Assembly: GCA_964362205.1 (NCBI GenBank)
Contig: CAYIDA010000005.1
Span: forward strand, 1-64,000
Length of the DNA stretch: 64,000 nt
From: an uncultured Gammaproteobacteria bacterium
Lineage (GTDB): Bacteria; Patescibacteriota; Patescibacteriia; UBA11705; JABHMO01
Reading direction: 5' to 3'
The notes below the pieces were generated by a model. It worked only from the letters and a program-made list of their open reading frames with translations, was not told the origin of the DNA and searched no databases. Both the position numbers and the translations under genes were made by a program. Below, in pieces: positions 31,417 through 63,314 of the stretch. Each line of letters begins with the position of its first letter. Within the stretch, counting starts at the first letter, position 1.

Positions 31417-32265
31417 TTAAAGAAGAGTAGTCGGTGGACCGAAGATAACGTTTAGTATTGATTCGCCGCGCTCTATGGCACGCAGTTTTTTCGTCAAGTT
31501 ATTGTCATAACAACCGTTTCTAGCGAATTCGTATTCTGCCAGCATCTCATCAATCTTATCAACTTCTTGATAAGGTAAATATTCGCTGTCTGCGTTAGTC
31601 AGGTGAGTAACCAGTTTCGCGTCCAGCGGTTCGTCTAGATAGCAGTGGGAGCCGTCCCAACGCAACTTTTCGCAATTGCCTTCGGCCGGGTCGCTGACGC
31701 GAATTTCTTTTGCTTTGACAATGACTAGCCTGATCGTGTCCTTAGTCAGTTCCAGCATGCTGATTGACCGATCATCGGTTCGCGCGATGATATTGCCAGA
31801 ACCCAAGCTGAGAGATTCTTTGAGAATATCCACGGGATGATCACGGAAAACAACCGTTTCTTGTGAGACGCTTGAACTGCATTTGTCCATACCCGGAATA
31901 CATTCTTTTATGATGGTCTCTCTGACGATTATCTGGGCACTGCGAAAGACATCGTGTGTTCGTACGGATATTGTCATTGTCGGCATTTCAGTTGTTCCAT
32001 CCGGTAGCGGGCGGCTGTTTTCTTTTTCGTATTTTTGATATTCATCGTTTCCAGTGTATTCAGTTTTTTCGTAAACAACCGCTTCCGGAAAATAACGTAT
32101 TGAAAGGTTGCCGCTGGGTTCAATAAATGCGCGTTCTGTTGCCGAGAGAGAAGAAAGTTCAATATCACTCAGCGGATATGATGGGCGCACATAGGATGGT
32201 GTGTTGTACATGCAACCGGTTAAGAAAATTGTGAATAGAACAATAATTTGTATGGTTCTGCGCAT
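31417..32265 (-). CDS. Hypothetical lipoprotein
   Basis: Signal peptide with lipobox LTGC (LFTIFLTGCMY). 282 aa. Confidence 0.75.
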   Translation of the reverse strand: MRRTIQIIVLFTIFLTGCMYNTPSYVRPSYPLSDIELSSLSATERAFIEPSGNLSIRYFPEAVVYEKTEYTGNDEYQKYEKENSRPLPDGTTEMPTMTISVRTHDVFRSAQIIVRETIIKECIPGMDKCSSSVSQETVVFRDHPVDILKESLSLGSGNIIARTDDRSISMLELTKDTIRLVIVKAKEIRVSDPAEGNCEKLRWDGSHCYLDEPLDAKLVTHLTNADSEYLPYQEVDKIDEMLAEYEFARNGCYDNNLTKKLRAIERGESILNVIFGPPTTLL

Positions 32266-32419
32266 TCTGAACCTCCGACAGGAGAACCATTCTCCTTCAA
32301 TATGATATTACATTATTTTTGTCATTGTGTCAAGTGTCATAAAATCGAGACAAAACGATTGACAGCCCAGTGGTTACGTGCTAAGTTGAATTTGAACCCG
32401 AAAGGGAAAGGAGGGAACC

Positions 32420-34657
32420 ATGTCAGATAAAGATAATGTGCATGTCAGTGATGAAATTGGAAACATGTTACTGCTCGACTTTTTGCGCAAGTATCGAGGT
32501 TCTCCGGCCATCAGCACTTTGACAATTCGTGATATTATCCGTTTGTGTCATGAGGTAGAATGTGGAATACATCATCCAAACATTGCAGCAGAGTCAGGAC
32601 ATCCGTGCGTTTGCAGGCAGGATGATTTAGTTTGCGAGGAATCGTTTGAAGTTGAACCTGAACCAGAAACTCAGGATAAGGGTTCTTGGTATTTCAAGGG
32701 ACCAAGCGGATTGACGTACCGCTTCAAAAGTTTTGCCTCGTTGCAGAAGTGGGTAAGAGGGAAGATCAGCGAAGGTCATCCCGAGCATGCTCTTGTTTCG
32801 CCAGATGGAGAGACGTGGAAATTATATGTGGAAGTTGAGAAAAATCTTATTGTCAGCGCCAATTCTGCCATTGAGGCGTTCAAGATGTCGAGAAACATTG
32901 AAGACGATTTTGATTCGGTTGGCGTGGAAGGATCGGGCAAGCCGGATCAGTTGGGCAATATTGGTTTAAGTTTTGATGAACACATGGTTGCAAATGATCC
33001 GTTGTTTAGCCCTGATCGCGCTCCATCTCCTGAATATCAAAGAGAAGCTGAATCAGCGGCCAGATATGCAGAAGCAGATCTTCAGCATCAAGACGGCACT
33101 GGCGCTGTGAGCGTTGTGTCATCCGAGTCTGGCTGTTTCAAAGGCGATCCTGCCAGTTTGGTGAGGAGAACCGAGCCAACGCTAGAACAACCGATTGAAT
33201 CAGAGACAGAACCATCAGTTAAGGAAAATATTCTTTGGAAGTTGAAGGAAACGAGTGGTCAGCATTACAATTTTGTTTCTTTCACTTCTTTGCAAAAGTG
33301 GGTTAGTAATTTACCATACACTGATCTGGCACCTATTTCAATTGACGGCGGAAAAACATGGAAAGCGTATGACGAAGTCATGGCCATTATCAATGCAAGT
33401 AACGGAATCCTCACTCCCATCAAAGCGTTTGACTGTGCTCACGTGATTGAGATAGGTGAAAGGCCAGCTGTTGCAACGGAAATCGTTGAGACAGGGACGG
33501 GCCAGACTTGCGCTTGCGGAACGACTGAAGAAGATTTGAAGATTGCCCCACACTTGTGTGACTGCGGCTGTGGTCAGACAGGCGGATGTAAATTCCCGGT
33601 TGATTCGTCGGGCAAGCCAGAAACGCCGAGAGCTGTTGAGACTGCGTCTGAAGCTGAAGCAGTATCCACTCTCAATGACTATCGTTGGAAATTGATAGCA
33701 CCGGATGGAGTGCTTCATGATTTTTGCACATTAGAGTCTTTGAGTTTGTGGGTAAAAAATTGGGGACTTTCTGGAAAATATTCAATCTCGTCTGACGGAA
33801 ATACGTGGACTGATTATGATGATTTCATGGCTAAGCTTGAACCTGCTGAAGCATTTACACAGGCGGTTGCACCAACAGAAGAAGGTTCAGCTGATTCGTC
33901 AGAGCAGTCGATTGAATTGGATTCGCAGGAAGTTTCTGATGAAACGCCAGGAGAAATGGAGTTGCTTGACGACGAGGTAGTAGAGGCAGATTCAGAGCAA
34001 ACTCCTGACGTCATTGACGAATCGCTTCGCGGTTGTCCGCACGATCCGTTGGCGGAGCAAGAAGTGCCGCGGATAGATTCAGATCAAGCTGATTCATCGG
34101 CCGAAAGTTCAACTCAGCCGGAGACATCAACTACTCCGGTTGTTACTATAGTTAATGAGATAATTTGGAAAGTGAGAGGCGAAAGAAGTGAACGAATTCA
34201 GGAGTTTCCTGGATTTGCCGCTTTGCAGCAGGGAGTGAGCAATCTTCCCGACGCGCCGGATAAGATTTATATTTCACTTGATGGAAAAGAATGGAAAACA
34301 TATGAGCAGGTTCAAAATTTGATAAAAAGTGGTGTTCGGCTTCGTGACGCTTATGAAGTCGCGACTCCAGTACGTTTTCGTAAACCAAGTTTGAACGGAA
34401 TACCAAACGCGGATCTGACAAAATGTGAAATTTGCCGTGACACGGTTGAGCTTTTGACGAGAGAAGATTGCGTGAGCAGAATGATTGTTCCCGTGGCAAT
34501 ACACGGTGGTGTTTTGGTGGTGGCAGTAGCCAATCCTGACGATCTGGAATTGGTTGCGTATCTTGAGAGTAAATATCCGTATTCTATCAGCCGTGTAGAG
34601 GCCGACAGAGAACAGATTCAAGAAGTTTTGGATACAATTTACGAAGAAAAAAGTTAA
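32420..34657 (+). CDS. Acidic multi-repeat protein with four GYF-like ~50-aa modules and a C-terminal T2SS-E N-terminal (GSPII_E_N / MshEN-like) domain
   Basis: RBS AAGGAGGG. Four repeats share W(K/Y)..G......F.SF.SLQKWV......IS.DG.TWK.Y. The C-terminal ~70 aa read LLTREDCVSRMIVPVAIHGGVLVVAVANPDDLELVAYLESKYPYSISRVEADREQIQEVLDTIY, matching the T2SSE_N fold. Confidence 0.8.
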   Translation: MSDKDNVHVSDEIGNMLLLDFLRKYRGSPAISTLTIRDIIRLCHEVECGIHHPNIAAESGHPCVCRQDDLVCEESFEVEPEPETQDKGSWYFKGPSGLTYRFKSFASLQKWVRGKISEGHPEHALVSPDGETWKLYVEVEKNLIVSANSAIEAFKMSRNIEDDFDSVGVEGSGKPDQLGNIGLSFDEHMVANDPLFSPDRAPSPEYQREAESAARYAEADLQHQDGTGAVSVVSSESGCFKGDPASLVRRTEPTLEQPIESETEPSVKENILWKLKETSGQHYNFVSFTSLQKWVSNLPYTDLAPISIDGGKTWKAYDEVMAIINASNGILTPIKAFDCAHVIEIGERPAVATEIVETGTGQTCACGTTEEDLKIAPHLCDCGCGQTGGCKFPVDSSGKPETPRAVETASEAEAVSTLNDYRWKLIAPDGVLHDFCTLESLSLWVKNWGLSGKYSISSDGNTWTDYDDFMAKLEPAEAFTQAVAPTEEGSADSSEQSIELDSQEVSDETPGEMELLDDEVVEADSEQTPDVIDESLRGCPHDPLAEQEVPRIDSDQADSSAESSTQPETSTTPVVTIVNEIIWKVRGERSERIQEFPGFAALQQGVSNLPDAPDKIYISLDGKEWKTYEQVQNLIKSGVRLRDAYEVATPVRFRKPSLNGIPNADLTKCEICRDTVELLTREDCVSRMIVPVAIHGGVLVVAVANPDDLELVAYLESKYPYSISRVEADREQIQEVLDTIYEEKS

Positions 34658-34763
34658 TCGTATTAAACAACCTTGTCTTTCTTAAAGACAGGGTTTTTTG
34701 TTTTAATCGTAGTTATTTAGTGTGAGTTTGCTTCGAGGTTTTCCTGAAGGAAAGTTTGAACAG

Positions 34764-34880
34764 GGAAGGTTGAGGAGGTCAGGAGATCGGCGAAGCCGAC
34801 AAGCCGTTAAGGTTTCTAAAATCCTGTTCATGTCGGAATAGGGTTGGGCATGGGCGGTAAGATGTTTTTGTTTATAAAAC
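34764..34880 (+). repeat. GC-rich structured element family F5, diverged copy 1
   Basis: Begins GGAAGGTTGAGGAGGTC and ends tgtttataaaac. GC-rich in an AT-rich intergenic region. Confidence 0.55.
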
Positions 34881-34894
34881 GTTTAGAGTATAGT

Positions 34895-35074
34895 TCAGCT
34901 GATTTTTTTGTTTAAAAATGGAAGGTTGAGGAGGTCGATAGACCGACGAAACCGACCGCCCGTCAGGGCATCTCAACCCCCTCCACGTCGGAACGGGGAG
35001 GGGGCAGGCTTGCCCAGTACTTGCGCGAAGCAAATAGTGCTGGGGGGTGGGGCGCAGTCCATGTTTATAACACT
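34895..35074 (+). repeat. GC-rich structured element family F5, copy 2 (candidate ncRNA or leader upstream of rfbB)
   Basis: Nearly identical to 52696-52887 over ~170 nt: ggaaggttgagg(a/g)agtcgatagaccgacgaaaccgaccgcccgtcagggca...ggcaggcttgcccagtacttgcgcga(a/t)gcaaatagtgctggggggtgggg. Internal hairpin ttgc-gcgaa-gcaa. A six-frame ORF called here is rejected. Confidence 0.6.
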
Positions 35075-36347: not shown

Positions 36348-36392
36348 TTGTTTATTGACAATAAAAACCCCATGGTGGGGAAAGGAGGTTCA

Positions 36393-37640
36393 ATGAATAA
36401 TGATTTGATCGAATTTACGAAAGATAATGACCGCAATTGGTCTGAAGTGAAAAGGTTGAGAGAAATACCGATAACTGAATTGATTGAAGAAGTTCAAGTT
36501 GATTCGCGAGAAGTCGCCTTTAAACGTGGCGTTCAAGCTTTGCAAGTGATTCTCAATAATTTGCATGATGCGGGTGTGAGATTCAGAATGACTGATCCGG
36601 GGCATGGTCCAGGACACCTGGCGCGCGACGCGGCCAATGCCGTATCATTGCTTAGCAAGATTGAAGCTGATCCGAGGCACATCTTCATCGGGCTGATGGC
36701 CGGTGTTCTTCATGACGTAGGTTGCGCGCTGGTTGATCGCTATGCGGATAAGACGCGCGCGGTTCGTCACGCGGAAGTCGGAGCCATGGTCGTAAATCAT
36801 GTTCTAGGCCTCAATCATTCAGCGATAAAATTGAGTGAAGCTGAAAGGCGGTTGGTTTGCTACGCGATTGCCGCTCATACTCATTATTTGAAGTCAACCG
36901 AGGTGACTCGCGCTGACGGACAAGTTCGCACAATTGAACCGTACGTTGATCTTGATAAAGACGGAAAACCGTTTTATTTTGTTTGGTTCCCTCGCTGGAT
37001 TGATCGTTTGGATTGCGTAGGGCCGAGTTTTATCGCGAGGCACTATCTGACTTTAGTAAAACCGCACGCTGACTTTGCGGGAGATAAAGGTTTTGTTGAT
37101 ACGTCATTTGAAAAAGATATGACGCCGAAATTTCAGGAAGAATGCGGTCAGCGCACTATGCTGGATCATCTCCGAATGTTCGCTAATAGCCAGACCAATG
37201 ATTCTCCTTACGGCAAGTGGGATTATGGTTGGATGATTGAACTTCGCGATCACGCGAAAAAAAGAACAAATGAGGTTGTTCTGGCTGTGCGTGATTTAGA
37301 TAAACGTGAACAGACCTTTGGAAGCTCGGAAGCGGTCAGTGCTGATTGGCGAATAATATTAATGGAAGCGATCAGTGCTGAGTGGCACAGATTTTTAGCT
37401 GAAAAGATTGAACCGACCGGCAAAGGCGCGGCTGTGGCTGATGAACTTCAAATAATGTTTGAGAATTTGCCGCTCGAAACGCAGAAAGCGTGGTGCGTTG
37501 GATTTCGAACGGTCATGTCACAATACAAAGAGTGGAAGAATGAAATGCTTATTGAGGACGTGATGCCACAGCTTCATGCTCTTAGTCCTTTGGGATTGAT
37601 AATACCAAGAATGGGAAAAACCATTGAACTAATGTTATAG
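36393..37640 (+). CDS. HD-domain phosphohydrolase-like protein
   Basis: ATG at 36393 lies after AAAGGAGG. H...HD motifs are present: HGPGHLARD and LMAGVLHDVGCA. The ORF opens earlier, at 36348. Confidence 0.75.
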   Translation: MNNDLIEFTKDNDRNWSEVKRLREIPITELIEEVQVDSREVAFKRGVQALQVILNNLHDAGVRFRMTDPGHGPGHLARDAANAVSLLSKIEADPRHIFIGLMAGVLHDVGCALVDRYADKTRAVRHAEVGAMVVNHVLGLNHSAIKLSEAERRLVCYAIAAHTHYLKSTEVTRADGQVRTIEPYVDLDKDGKPFYFVWFPRWIDRLDCVGPSFIARHYLTLVKPHADFAGDKGFVDTSFEKDMTPKFQEECGQRTMLDHLRMFANSQTNDSPYGKWDYGWMIELRDHAKKRTNEVVLAVRDLDKREQTFGSSEAVSADWRIILMEAISAEWHRFLAEKIEPTGKGAAVADELQIMFENLPLETQKAWCVGFRTVMSQYKEWKNEMLIEDVMPQLHALSPLGLIIPRMGKTIELML

Positions 37641-38186: not shown

Positions 38187-38246
38187 TGATTTGACTTTTT
38201 TCTATCAATTGATAAAGTGTTAGCGATAAAATTAACATCAGACATT

Positions 38247-40019
38247 ATGAAGATTCTAATCATTGGCGCCAAGGGTATGCTTGGTCAGGAATTGGCCAAG
38301 GCGTTTATTGGCAATGAACTTGTTCTGTGGGACAAAGAAGAGTTGGACATTACGGATTTTGAACGAGTAAAAAAGACGATTAAAGAATTACAGCCGGAAC
38401 TCATTATTAATTCCGCAGCCTTTAACGCGGTGGATGATTGCGAACAAAATTTTGATTTGGCGAAAAAAATAAATTACGACGGTCCGGTGAATTTGGCGAA
38501 AGCGGCTAACATGGTTGGCGCTTTTTTTGTTCATTACAGCACTGATTATGTTTTTGATGGAGAAAGAAGAGATGGCTACGTGGAATATGATTTGCCGGCG
38601 CCGATTTCAAAATACGGAGAATCAAAATATTTAGGCGAAGAAGTATTGGAGCATAATGATGCGATCTATTTAATAAGAACATCGCGTTTGTTCGGTAAAC
38701 AGGCGAGCGCAATCGGCGCAAAAAAAAGTTTTGTGGAAGTGATGCTCAAGTTGGCCGATGAAAAAGAGGAGCTCGAAGTTGTGAATGAGGAAGTGAGTAA
38801 TCCGACGTATGTCGTTGATCTGGCTTATCAAACAAAATTAATTGTTGATGGAAATTATTCACCGGGAATTTATCACGCCACGAATGAAGGCGGTTGTACG
38901 TGGTATGAGTTTGCTTTGGAAATTTTCAAATTATCAGGAAAAACTGTTCGAGTTAAACCGGTTGGCGGAGAAAAGTTTCCGCGGCCGGCCAAACGTCCGA
39001 AATTTTCTTCACTGCGCAATACCAAATTACCGAAAATGAGAAGTTGGCAAGAGGCGTTGGGAGAGTTTCTTGGTGAGTTGGGACACGTGAGTTCAGTTCA
39101 ACAAGTTAGGGCTGAGTCATCTTTTGTTAACGCCTCAACGAGCGAACCCAAGAACAATTTGAACAACGTCAACAACTCCAACAATTCGAACAACTCTAAC
39201 ATCTTGAGCAAAGTTACTCTCAACGAAGTTATCTTGAAAGCGAGCAAACAAGCAACAAATAATCAAAAAATCATGAAAGGCATCATTTTGTCGGGAGGGA
39301 AGGGCACACGCTTACATCCATTAACAAAAATTACGAGTAAACAATTATTACCGGTTTTTCACAAACCAATGATCATGTTTCCGCTCGAAACCTTAATGAA
39401 GGCGGGGATTAAAGATATTTTAATAATTGTTTCGCCTGAGTACGCCGGACAATATTTGCATCTGCTCGGTTCTGGTAAAGAAATGGGCATAAAATTGACT
39501 TATGAAATTCAAGATGAACCGCGCGGTTTGCCGGAAGCATTTATTATCGGCGAAAATTTTATTGGTGATGATAATGTGACCATGATTCTCGGCGACAACA
39601 TATTTTTTGACCATGATTTCACGGACGATATTAAATCGTTTACCAGTGGCGGCCGGGTTTTTGCAGTGGAAGTGCCTGATCCGGAGAGATTTGGCGTGGT
39701 GGAATTTGATCAGAATAATCGCGTCTTATCCATTGAAGAAAAACCGCAAAAGCCGAAAAGCAATTACGCGATTCCGGGAATGTATATTTACGATCAACGT
39801 GTTTGTAATATCGCCAAGGGCATAAAACCAACTTGGCGGCCGGAAACTGATATCACTGAAGTTCACAAAGCTTATTTGAATATGAACGAACTCGATGTGC
39901 GCAAAGTTCACGGCCGCTGGCTCGATGCCGGCACGCACGAATCGTTGTTAAAAGCTTCCAACTGGATCGCGGCTATGGAGTATCAGAAGAGAATGGGGTA
40001 TAATGACATTAAAGCATAG
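38247..40019 (+). CDS. rfbD-rfbA: Bifunctional fusion: dTDP-4-dehydrorhamnose reductase (RfbD, N-terminal) + glucose-1-phosphate thymidylyltransferase (RfbA, C-terminal), joined by an Asn/Ser-rich linker
   Basis: N-terminal half MKILIIGAKGMLGQEL...YSTDYVFDG...SKYGESK matches RmlD. The linker is NNLNNVNNSNNSNNSNILS. C-terminal half MKGIILSGGKGTRLHPLT...GDNIF...LDAGTHESLL matches RmlA. It is a single frame with no stop. The ORF opens at GTG 38217; the first ATG is at 38247. Confidence 0.9.
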   Translation: MKILIIGAKGMLGQELAKAFIGNELVLWDKEELDITDFERVKKTIKELQPELIINSAAFNAVDDCEQNFDLAKKINYDGPVNLAKAANMVGAFFVHYSTDYVFDGERRDGYVEYDLPAPISKYGESKYLGEEVLEHNDAIYLIRTSRLFGKQASAIGAKKSFVEVMLKLADEKEELEVVNEEVSNPTYVVDLAYQTKLIVDGNYSPGIYHATNEGGCTWYEFALEIFKLSGKTVRVKPVGGEKFPRPAKRPKFSSLRNTKLPKMRSWQEALGEFLGELGHVSSVQQVRAESSFVNASTSEPKNNLNNVNNSNNSNNSNILSKVTLNEVILKASKQATNNQKIMKGIILSGGKGTRLHPLTKITSKQLLPVFHKPMIMFPLETLMKAGIKDILIIVSPEYAGQYLHLLGSGKEMGIKLTYEIQDEPRGLPEAFIIGENFIGDDNVTMILGDNIFFDHDFTDDIKSFTSGGRVFAVEVPDPERFGVVEFDQNNRVLSIEEKPQKPKSNYAIPGMYIYDQRVCNIAKGIKPTWRPETDITEVHKAYLNMNELDVRKVHGRWLDAGTHESLLKASNWIAAMEYQKRMGYNDIKA

Positions 40020-52695: not shown

Positions 52696-52887
52696 TTTTT
52701 TTGTTTTAAAATAGAAGGTTGAGGGAGTCGATAGACCGACGAAACCGACCGCCCGTCAGGGCACCTCAAACCCCCTCCACGTCGCCCTTCGAGTACCTCA
52801 GGGTGACAGGAGGAGGGGGCAGGCTTGCCCAGTACTTGCGCGATGCAAATAGTGCTGGGGGGTGGGGTGCGGTCTTGGTTATAAAAG
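52696..52887 (+). repeat. GC-rich structured element family F5, copy 3
   Basis: Close paralogue of 34895-35074, including the shared upstream gatttttttgtttaaaa(t/a)(g/t)(g/a) context. A six-frame ORF called here is rejected. Confidence 0.6.
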
Positions 52888-61697: not shown

Positions 61698-63314
61698 ATG
61701 TCCCACCAGGAAAACAATGTTTGCTGTCGTAATATTACGATAATCGCGCGCTATGTCCAGAATGCTTTGGGCAGTGATGTTTTATTGCTGGAAAATTTGC
61801 CGTACTCAGTTGAATATCTGAAAGACGAGCATAACTGGATTCCTCTCGAGCTTTATGTTCAAATAATGGAGCGAGCGATTGAACTTTTGAAAGACGATGA
61901 AGCGCCGTTCAAAATGGGTTTGTCCGCGCAGGAACTCGAATCTTGGGGTGCATTTAAATATTTGCAGAAAGTTTTCGGCAGTGTGATTTTCGGTCCGATT
62001 GAAGTTTACAAACAAGTCGGGAAATACAATGAGTTTTTTAATCGCACGAAAGATTTGATTGTGGTTAAGACCGGCCTTGACCATTGTTACGTTAAAATAA
62101 AATTCAAAAATAACGTCAACCCGGTAGATGATTTCGCGAGTGACGCTTTTATTCGCGGCATTCTTTGCGGCGTGCCGAATATTTGGCATTTGCCGCCGGC
62201 GAAGTTGGAGGAACCGCTTTTTGAATATGATCTCAAATATTTATTAACGAAGATTGGCGGCGTTGACATAGCGGCGATTGAATTGCGCGGAGATAATTAT
62301 TTTGTAAATGGCGTAGAGTGCGCTAAGCGCGTGGCGTTAATATCTGAATTCAACGGTAATGAACCTCTTTTTCTCGGACAGTATCGGGAAATCAAATCAA
62401 ACGATAATTTGGATGGTTTTACGCTGGCTATTTTGATCACCAAGGATTTGGAAATTAATAAAAAGCTTGTTTTGAAAAAAGGACAAATTTACAACGCGCC
62501 GTATTTTATTTATAGATTAACTTGGAAGCCGCTCAGTTTTTGGCGGAAAATGTATCAGTTGACCATTCATTCGTTTCTTAGTAAGCGCGCCTATCGCGAA
62601 GGCATTGAATCGCAGCTCGCGACCATTAGAAATTACGTTGAAACTTTGGAAGATAAGGTTTTGAAACGAACAGAACAATTGAATCAAGCCAAAGCTGAAG
62701 CTGAATTTTGGCGCGCCAAAGCTGACAATCTTTTGCACACCATGTTGCCGCAAAACATTGTTGAAAAAATGATCAAGGGAAAATTGATTGCTGAAGAAAT
62801 AAACGGCACCGTGGTTTTTACTGACTTGGTTGGGTTCACTGATTTCAGCCGCAACCTCGAACCGCAACAAGTGGCTGATGTGCTGACAAAATATTTTACC
62901 GGCATGAGCAGAATTCTCACGAAACACGGTGGCTGGGTGAATAAATTTATGGGTGATGGCATTCTCGCTTTATTTGGTTTGGCAGGTGAAGTTGACGCAG
63001 CCGAACGCGCGGTTGAAGCGGCTATTGAAATGCAGAAACAAATGTCAGAGTACACTTGGAAGATGCGCGTTGGCGTAGCCAGCGGAAAATTTATTGTTGG
63101 AGAGTTCGGCGCTGAAGGATTGCGCAGGTTTGATTGTCTCGGACATATTGTCAATTTGGCAAGCAGATTGCAATCAGAAGCAAAGGAAGATGAGATTTTG
63201 GTTTGCAGCCGCACGCGTGAACTTTTGACTGACAAATTTAATTTTTCAGAAGTAAAAAAAATATCACCGAAAGGAATCGGCGAGGTGGAAGTGTTTACAA
63301 TAAAAAGCGTTTAG
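61698..63314 (+). CDS. Class III adenylate/guanylate cyclase with ~330-aa N-terminal domain of unknown function
   Basis: The C-terminal CHD core reads GTVVFTDLVGFTDFS...FMGDGILALFG...RVGVASGKFIVGEFG. Confidence 0.85.
   Translation: MSHQENNVCCRNITIIARYVQNALGSDVLLLENLPYSVEYLKDEHNWIPLELYVQIMERAIELLKDDEAPFKMGLSAQELESWGAFKYLQKVFGSVIFGPIEVYKQVGKYNEFFNRTKDLIVVKTGLDHCYVKIKFKNNVNPVDDFASDAFIRGILCGVPNIWHLPPAKLEEPLFEYDLKYLLTKIGGVDIAAIELRGDNYFVNGVECAKRVALISEFNGNEPLFLGQYREIKSNDNLDGFTLAILITKDLEINKKLVLKKGQIYNAPYFIYRLTWKPLSFWRKMYQLTIHSFLSKRAYREGIESQLATIRNYVETLEDKVLKRTEQLNQAKAEAEFWRAKADNLLHTMLPQNIVEKMIKGKLIAEEINGTVVFTDLVGFTDFSRNLEPQQVADVLTKYFTGMSRILTKHGGWVNKFMGDGILALFGLAGEVDAAERAVEAAIEMQKQMSEYTWKMRVGVASGKFIVGEFGAEGLRRFDCLGHIVNLASRLQSEAKEDEILVCSRTRELLTDKFNFSEVKKISPKGIGEVEVFTIKSV

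Follow-up and report, generated by a model that had tools for sequence, protein, structure and literature searches.

The window analysed here, that is the whole 64,000-nt stretch of contig CAYIDA010000005.1, carries housekeeping genes (ThrRS, DnaE, pyruvate kinase, a MurA-type EPSP-synthase-fold enzyme, CTP synthase and L9), dTDP-rhamnose genes (rmlC, rmlB and a fused rmlD-rmlA), glycosyltransferases and an S8 peptidase. The target gene is the open reading frame (ORF) at 32420-34657 on the forward strand. It encodes a strongly acidic protein (the window protein; D 7.5 %, E 10.5 %, D+E 17.9 %, net charge -69) of 745 amino acids (aa), in which four modules assigned to the bacterial GYF_2 family are followed by a C-terminal domain of MshEN_C type. 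A preliminary description made from the DNA had given the extent of this protein exactly and had noted its acidity. The features of the target gene are listed below together with their conservation in the homologues P0001, P0003 and P0004; iE is the independent E-value of the module hidden Markov model (HMM) described below, and pLDDT is the predicted local distance difference test score of AlphaFold2 (AF2).

32409-32414, forward strand: ribosome-binding site AGGAGG, 5 nt 5' of the ATG, read from the sequence.
32420-34657, forward strand: whole ORF, 745 aa plus stop, ATG start; P0001, P0003 and P0004 begin with the same MSEKDNVHV... sequence.
32420-32527, forward strand: N-terminal 36-aa segment (MSDKDNVHVSDEIGNMLLLDFLRKYRGSPAISTLTI), predicted helical at low confidence; 86 % identical to P0003/P0004.
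32675-32902, forward strand: GYF_2-like module 1, aa 86-161; iE 5e-23; AF2 module model pLDDT 83.6.
33134-33178, forward strand: linear element CFKGDPASLVRRTEP, aa 239-253 (consensus CFKGDPASLVxRTxP); 86 % identical in P0003/P0004, in low-pLDDT surroundings within an otherwise unalignable acidic linker.
33224-33451, forward strand: GYF_2-like module 2, aa 269-344; iE 3e-26; perfect Asp-box-like SIDGGKTW; weak Pfam BNR match at aa 306-315.
33509-33589, forward strand: Cys-rich insert CACG...CDCGCGQTGGC, aa 364-390; window/P0001/P0002 clade only, absent from P0003/P0004.
33680-33865, forward strand: GYF_2-like module 3, aa 421-482; iE 8e-9; the most divergent module, a window-clade insertion.
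34151-34375, forward strand: GYF_2-like module 4, aa 578-652; iE 5e-26; joined to the C-terminal domain by AYEVATPxxFRxPSL.
34391-34654, forward strand: MshEN_C-type alpha/beta domain, aa 658-745; Pfam MshEN, profile matches to PDB chains, and AF2 pLDDT of about 80 with a beta-hairpin/helix pattern.
34669-34705, forward strand: intrinsic terminator with a 12-bp stem, a 3-nt loop and a T run, 12 nt past the stop codon.

The target gene is monocistronic and forms a separate transcription unit, because it has its own ribosome-binding site and intrinsic terminator and because rmlB has its own near-consensus promoter (11/12 positions) 440 nt past that terminator. An operon of the target gene with the rml genes was therefore rejected. 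No signal peptide, transmembrane segment or known secretion signal was found in the window protein by Pfam scan and sequence analysis, and its sole hydrophobic peak is a beta-hairpin within MshEN_C. From these features we infer a soluble, cytoplasmic protein.

The repeats are marked by a Trp (aa 90, 273, 423 and 583) and by the motif S-x-D-G-x(1-2)-W (aa 127, 307, 457 and 619). An HMM trained solely on the P0003 and P0004 modules, both proteins being distant homologues, found four domains in the window protein (aa 86-161, 269-344, 423-474 and 578-652). An HMM of one paralogue module type detects the other types with iE of 1e-4 to 3e-14, and the best of 500 shuffled controls reached 4.8 bits with the module HMM, which places the repeats far beyond chance. 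The four repeats reported earlier thus stand at the places given for them, while the unit is about 70 aa rather than 50, as two conserved helices ending A-F/Y come after the Trp. Using an alignment of 12 modules, AF2 predicted a beta-beta-alpha-beta-alpha-alpha fold (pLDDT 83.6; predicted template modelling score, pTM, 0.73), and on this model the modules would be GYF-like in fold.

No Pfam GYF or GYF_2 (PF14237) match at E<=10 was observed in the window protein, P0001, P0003 or P0004. The module consensus, WKLKxxxGxxYNFxGFxSLxKWV...ISLDGxTWKxY, contains neither GPF nor GYF and does not carry the eukaryotic GYF signature GP[YF]xxxx[MV]xxWxxx[GN]YF (PF02213); bacterial GYF domains usually lack the G-Y-F residues (PMC11135422). 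An exhaustive module-profile search of 1.84 billion representative proteins gave 123 matches, which were re-scanned. Among the re-scanned matches, 80 contain the module in full, namely 75 distant proteins, four members of the family and P0007, which was set aside; 45 cover the Asp-box-like hairpin only. The module profile matched P0035, one of the 75 distant proteins, with an E-value of 2.8e-7, in register with the Pfam GYF_2 domain of that protein (288-337; 92 bits), and when the profile was compared with the three GYF_2 copies of P0035 using hhalign, a probability of 94.7 % was obtained (E-value 6.3e-8, 50 columns). Because of this in-register match and the profile-profile score, the modules were placed in GYF_2, and their sequences support the assignment as divergent members of that family. 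The first reading of the repeats as GYF-like therefore held, though the Pfam GYF_2 model misses them.

Two other family assignments were considered and rejected. For BNR/Asp-box repeats, the match reached 13.9 bits against a cutoff of 27 in a single stretch, and the modules are predicted to be alpha+beta rather than propeller blades. For the discoidin family (F5_F8_type_C), the Pfam match was weak. Both matches, like the 45 hairpin-only matches of the exhaustive search, arise because the S-x-D-G-x-x-W hairpin is shared, and true GYF_2 domains such as those of P0035 carry this Asp-box-like motif too (ISRDGHNW and VSSDGNTW). The module profile gave motif-level matches only (aequorin and CBM32) among PDB sequences.

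In the 75 distant proteins the module subfamily occurs with an N-terminal CxxC..CxxC ribbon (50/75), a transmembrane segment (51/75) and Pro-rich stretches (37/75); a Pfam scan found MshEN in none of them (0/75). In P0005 (886 aa) and P0017 (494 aa) the module is likewise present in 3-4 copies, and these two proteins share a different C-terminal domain of about 150 aa. P0017 (L008, 6001-7485) is encoded on a 536-kb contig, within a long same-strand run of small Pfam-less ORFs and an RNA ligase, which looks like a huge phage. The arrays in P0005 and P0017 fit a layout of a GYF array with an exchangeable docking domain.

The C-terminus of the window protein matches Pfam MshEN (PF05157, formerly T2SSE_N) at aa 660-743 with 49.1 bits against a cutoff of 23.1, covering positions 2-86 of the 90 in the profile, and the domain scores 58-62 bits in P0003/P0004. 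In a sequence search it aligns to residues 56-142 of MxPilB. When the family profile was compared with PDB sequences, MxPilB 58-142 (E-value 8e-12), GmPilB 81-164, the XcPilB N1D 78-157 and VcMshE (5HTL) 63-144 were matched, so that the best PDB matches are N1Ds of type IV pilus PilB proteins. The PilB equivalog model TIGR02538 covers only positions 55-139 of 564 and scores 24.6 bits against a cutoff of 675. As had been stated before, there is no ATPase: PF00437 (T2SSE) has no match at E<=10 in the window protein, and the chain ends 2 aa past MshEN_C.

In MshE, the four-helix bundle MshEN_N (residues 1-64) binds cyclic di-GMP (c-di-GMP) via two 24-residue motifs and is followed by the alpha/beta subdomain MshEN_C (65-145) (PMC5013675). 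On its own, MshEN_N binds c-di-GMP no less well than the complete domain does, and Asp108, the only contact contributed by MshEN_C, is dispensable (PMC5013675). Because every alignment of the window protein begins after the nucleotide-binding part, the window protein holds, on sequence comparison, MshEN_C alone without the four-helix MshEN_N and the ATPase; the ~75 aa in front of MshEN_C are a GYF module, which stands in place of MshEN_N. The 90-position Pfam model itself appears to correspond to MshEN_C. Since it covers the alpha/beta half, the label MshEN is not evidence of c-di-GMP binding. The C-terminal domain named in the preliminary description is thus present, and only as the half that lacks the c-di-GMP bundle.

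The motif tested was two tandem copies of RLGxx(L/V/I)(L/V/I)xxG(L/V/I)(L/V/I)xxxxLxxxLxxQ with a 5-residue spacer, having 12 defined positions. The strict 24-residue motif has no match in the window protein even when 5/12 defined positions are altered, and it occurs in none of the five family members. For the relaxed motif of PMC5013675, no match was found at <=2 mismatches in all five homologues and none in the six-frame translation of the window; at <=3 mismatches four matches were observed against 2.3 expected, which is a chance rate, and they are not conserved. A PilB N-terminus used as a positive control for the motif search was not matched either, and this control was set aside because it was unreliable. 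The N-terminal segment was also considered as a cryptic MshEN_N and rejected, as the N-terminal 60 aa match no MshE or PilB chain and nothing in Pfam. This segment has no family match in Pfam, and a PDB profile search with 36-60 aa gave PurL and TREM2 at chance level.

These results bear on the proposal, made when the sequence was first described, that the protein is a stand-alone receptor for a nucleotide second messenger (c-di-GMP or cAMP/cGMP), with the MshEN-like domain binding the nucleotide and the GYF modules transmitting the signal. The Pfam match lies above threshold, the window also contains a class III cyclase gene, and PMC5013675 and the NfrB study (PMC8669469) describe c-di-GMP binding by MshEN fused to non-ATPase partners. 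However, it is MshEN_N that binds c-di-GMP and this half is absent, as are the motifs; in the T. thermophilus PilF domain GSPII-A, small motif deviations in an intact bundle already abolish binding (PMC12002112). MshEN binds neither cAMP nor cGMP (PMC5013675). Neither the window protein (Pfam and NCBIfam) nor the 46 further window ORFs that were scanned with Pfam showed a domain of the cNMP-binding, PilZ, GGDEF or EAL type. The cyclase (61698-63314, Guanylate_cyc 91 bits) is real as first described, but it lies 27 kb from the monocistronic target gene and no link between the two was found. We therefore regard a receptor of this kind as extremely improbable, and it is the scaffold, which the preliminary description had offered as the other option, that survives. 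Of the two results which that description had named as refuting, a missing T2SSE_N match and a missing 24-residue motif, only the second was obtained.

When the full-length protein was modelled with AF2, it appeared as beads on a string. The four modules and MshEN_C are folded with pLDDT of 70-84, and the N-terminal 87 aa and three long acidic linkers, together about half of the chain, have pLDDT <50. The three D/E-rich linkers, which had been noticed earlier between the modules, have net charges of -12, -8 and -26 and are, on this model, probably disordered. In the Cys-rich insert the pattern CACG-x13-CDCGCGQTGGC places six Cys in 27 aa, and it may be a metal-binding site. A second Cys/His cluster at aa 43-72 is not conserved.

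The family consists of five sequences (the window protein, P0001, a split NCBI copy, P0003 and P0004) and one 86-aa fragment, which was recovered by a profile search with the C-terminal domain. P0001 is 84 % identical to the window protein. P0003 and P0004 contain three modules instead of four, and the identity in their best high-scoring segment pair (HSP) is 34 % and 31 %, respectively. In two scans of 185,579 species-representative genomes no family member was found, and a metagenome scan for new members re-found the known locus only. The source of the window is a Patescibacteria (CPR) bacterium: an NCBI metagenome-assembled genome (MAG), 'Patescibacteria group bacterium', contains an annotated fragment of 99 % identity, and an identical 745-aa protein was also assembled from Hainich aquifer groundwater. 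The family appears to be confined to a narrow lineage, represented by one Patescibacteria MAG and groundwater metagenomes.

In the MAG the gene is divided between two neighbouring hypothetical proteins, MEK7511857.1 (471 aa) and MEK7511858.1 (273 aa), and the sequence deviates near their junction. The intact 745-aa form is present on an 82-kb contig and, independently, on the Hainich contig, and an artefact, from assembly or a frameshift, probably accounts for the split.

When the window protein was compared with P0003/P0004, the GYF modules were 45-62 % and MshEN_C 44-48 % identical, and the linkers were essentially unalignable. The conservation is highest in two short linear segments, the N-terminal 36 aa and the CFKGDPASLVxRTxP element, and at the junction of module 4 and MshEN_C, rather than in the domains. 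The junction AYEVATPxxFRxPSL is near-invariant, with invariant alignment columns 644-658. Such a pattern is what would be expected of interaction motifs.

Between the related loci, the neighbouring products (ThrRS, S8 peptidase, RmlC, CDP-alcohol phosphatidyltransferase and RmlB) are 88-93 % identical, and the genomes sharing the locus are very close relatives. The window protein shows 31-34 % identity to P0003/P0004 in the best HSP and 48-49 % over aligned columns, so the target gene is by far the fastest-evolving gene of the locus. Module 3 is specific to the window clade; a module was thus gained or lost within the family. In the comparison with P0001, module 1 and the segment before it (aa 37-161, window 32528-32902) are about 50 % identical. 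From aa 162 on the identity is 98-100 %, except for module 2 (74 %) and a short stretch before it (53 %). Module 1 of P0001 resembles that of the distant P0003/P0004, which suggests that the N-terminal third was recombined or replaced between the two strains.

The rapid divergence, the gain or loss of a module and the exchange of the N-terminal third between near-identical strains could also point to a rapidly diversifying factor in host or phage interaction. Such a factor would be exported or delivered, with the N-terminal 36 aa as a targeting signal and the modules engaging host-cell proteins of a presumably episymbiotic bacterium. The conserved N-terminus in front of a variable body resembles a signal, and related multi-module proteins are found on the 536-kb contig with its phage-like gene content. 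However, the protein has no recognisable export signal or membrane segment and no PADLOC or PHROG match that would indicate a defence or phage origin. Much of the divergence falls in disordered linkers, where sequence changes fast even under ordinary constraint, and MshEN_C is a domain of cytoplasmic machines. We consider this explanation very unlikely.

All copies of the target gene occupy the same slot, in the order HIT, variable small genes, target gene and rmlB. In 4/4 independent contigs it lies between rmlC and rmlB, with rmlD-rmlA downstream. The spacer between HIT and the target gene varies among close relatives: in the window it holds an ORF for a 282-aa lipoprotein-like protein of no family (31417-32265, reverse strand), no ORF was called in L001, a 67-aa ORF is present in L002, and ORFs of 249 aa and 92 aa are found in L003. 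The rhamnose-pathway genes are scattered among unrelated genes and do not form a single operon. The gene at 38217-40019 (forward strand) encodes one 600-aa protein combining RmlD (dTDP-4-dehydrorhamnose reductase, 275 bits) and RmlA (nucleotidyl transferase, 206 bits).

This position raises the question of a hub that is independent of pili, in which MshEN_C does no more than oligomerise or mediate generic interactions and another process is organised by the protein, for example that of the envelope-glycan (dTDP-rhamnose) enzymes encoded around it. The constant rml neighbourhood agrees with such a role, as does the lack of pilus genes nearby, and in NfrB an exopolysaccharide glycosyltransferase is already known to be fused to MshEN (PMC8669469). 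But the syntenic genomes are very close (neighbours about 90 % identical), so the shared position is little informative. The target gene is equipped with a separate ribosome-binding site and terminator and rmlB with a separate promoter, and the best matches of the C-terminal domain are pilus PilB N1Ds. We regard such a pilus-independent hub as somewhat unlikely.

Several other observations were made in the window, where five ORFs in addition to the 46 scanned with Pfam were also compared with PADLOC and PHROGs and no gene for pili, secretion or c-di-GMP turned up. An intergenic element of about 130-150 nt with the core GGAAGGTTGAGGAGGTC occurs three times on the forward strand (34754-34890, 34910-35060 and 52699-52850; 3 matches against 0.05 expected). 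Two copies lie in the 507-bp spacer from the terminator to the rmlB promoter and one past the CTP synthase gene. According to RNAalifold the copies share a predicted fold of -30.9 kcal/mol with 32 pairs, of which 4 show compensatory changes, and the element has no Rfam match. The 430-aa protein encoded at 36348-37640 (forward strand) has no Pfam match; it shows a weak PADLOC match to Cas3c (19.8 bits; Cas3 HD nuclease, aa 102-188) and weak similarity to a PHROG of unknown function, and it is kept after rmlB in L001 (67 % identity). From these similarities it is probably a divergent HD-superfamily phosphohydrolase. At 13208-15754 (forward strand) an 848-aa protein with major-vault-protein domains is encoded (MVP_shoulder 93.6 bits, Vault_3 43 bits and a weak Band_7), which is unusual for a Patescibacteria genome.

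The reading we favour, to which we give about an even chance, is that the window protein is a soluble, cytoplasmic, multivalent adaptor or scaffold, in which MshEN_C docks and the GYF modules and linear motifs bind partners. Through MshEN_C the protein would attach to the partner that normally recognises N1Ds of PilB type, which might be a stator protein of the PilM/GspL kind, a cofactor resembling PilZ, or PilB itself by way of its N1D ring. In the assembly ATPases the N1D/GSPII domain is regarded as the part that touches the stator, as seen in the GspE-GspL structures (2BH1, 4PHT) and inferred for PilM, and in X. citri the N1D binds PilZ (PMC11656802). At the docking site, the GYF modules and linear motifs would recruit or cluster other proteins. 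The N-terminal segment, the CFKGDPASLV element and the GYF modules may engage such proteins, or each other in an autoinhibited state, and the acidic tethers would provide reach. Bacterial GYF domains act as protein-protein adaptors, and the zinc ribbon-linker-GYF arrangement has been described as a widespread switch module (PMC11135422). The GYF domain of Myxococcus GltJ binds a proline-rich sequence of AglZ with micromolar affinity via its beta-sheet (PMC11135422). In the window protein a putative peptide-binding module stands where MshE has its nucleotide-binding bundle, and c-di-GMP would not be sensed in the MshEN mode.

Some points weigh against the adaptor reading. Since no pilus, secretion, PilZ or other c-di-GMP genes were found in the 64-kb window with Pfam or on related and edge contigs, the proposed pilus link is drawn from domain homology, and all partners named above are candidates. 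A search of the window for Pro-rich ligand candidates found none. The ligand class of the modules is uncertain, because bacterial GYF domains vary in their binding modes. The full-length AF2 model is of low confidence (pTM 0.22) because the alignment is shallow (four sequences), and a family of five members and a fragment is too small for a co-occurrence test.

A more specific form of the pilus connection was also considered, in which the window protein imitates the PilB N1D and is 'peptide-gated', in a lineage dependent on type IV pili. Here the GYF module would have replaced the c-di-GMP bundle, with the further modules on acidic tethers, and the free-standing adaptor or decoy would compete with, or bridge to, a PilM-type stator protein or the PilB ring, coupling pilus activity to protein ligands instead of a nucleotide messenger. 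If this were the case, the fast evolution and the module turnover would reflect adapting pilus control in episymbiotic Patescibacteria; we think it unlikely. Cultivated Patescibacteria are reported to need a type IV pilus for host attachment (PMC9894109, PMC11623550). Should the adaptor bind to the platform of the type IV pilus, it would represent a pilus cofactor of a new kind. Patescibacteria have small genomes with few recognisable regulators, and a half-disordered, fast-evolving adaptor of 745 aa is a sizeable investment. At present the window protein is an orphan architecture. As a practical caution, a Pfam 'MshEN' match alone says nothing on c-di-GMP binding.

Both domain types are known, and it is the combination of 3-4 GYF_2-like modules with an orphan MshEN_C that is new, as it was seen in no other protein retrieved. 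When the window protein is compared with the assembly ATPases carrying MshEN/GSPII (N1D) domains (VcMshE; the PilB proteins of Myxococcus (MxPilB), Geobacter and X. citri; T. thermophilus PilF), its C-terminal 88 aa are homologous to their MshEN_C. Unlike these ATPases, it lacks the MshEN_N bundle, the 24-residue motifs, the c-di-GMP site and the T2SSE ATPase, and its MshEN_C is at the C-terminus instead of the N-terminus, directly preceded by a GYF module. Non-ATPase MshEN fusions, such as the E. coli glycosyltransferase-MshEN protein NfrB and the MshEN_N fusions listed in PMC5013675, likewise use an MshEN-family domain for regulation or interaction in proteins that are not ATPases. However, these keep MshEN_N and bind c-di-GMP, whereas the window protein keeps MshEN_C only.

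The proteins with a BNR/Asp-box and the discoidin proteins (F5/8 type C, CBM32) share the local motif S-x-D-G-x-T-W with the window modules. The latter form neither a beta-propeller nor a jelly-roll, and the motif is one hairpin inside a GYF_2-like module.

The modules are homologous to the bacterial GYF_2 domains (PF14237/DUF4339; GltJ) and, like many of them, lack the G-Y-F residues. As in GltJ, the same module subfamily is elsewhere joined to a zinc ribbon, a Pro-rich linker and a transmembrane segment (PMC11135422). The window protein differs from such zinc ribbon-linker-GYF receptors in having no zinc-ribbon Pfam match and no membrane anchor, and its Cys at aa 43-72 are not conserved in P0003/P0004. 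In contrast to typical GYF_2 domains, the window modules are missed by the Pfam model, contain the Asp-box-like S-x-D-G-x-x-W hairpin and have a two-helix extension of about 20 aa. The family has 3-4 copies where one is typical, fused to MshEN_C and connected by linkers that are acidic, not Pro-rich. Taken with the pilus ATPases, the comparison indicates that the MshEN_C/N1D docking subdomain is separable from the nucleotide-sensing half and the ATPase, and that it can be recombined with a bacterial GYF array.

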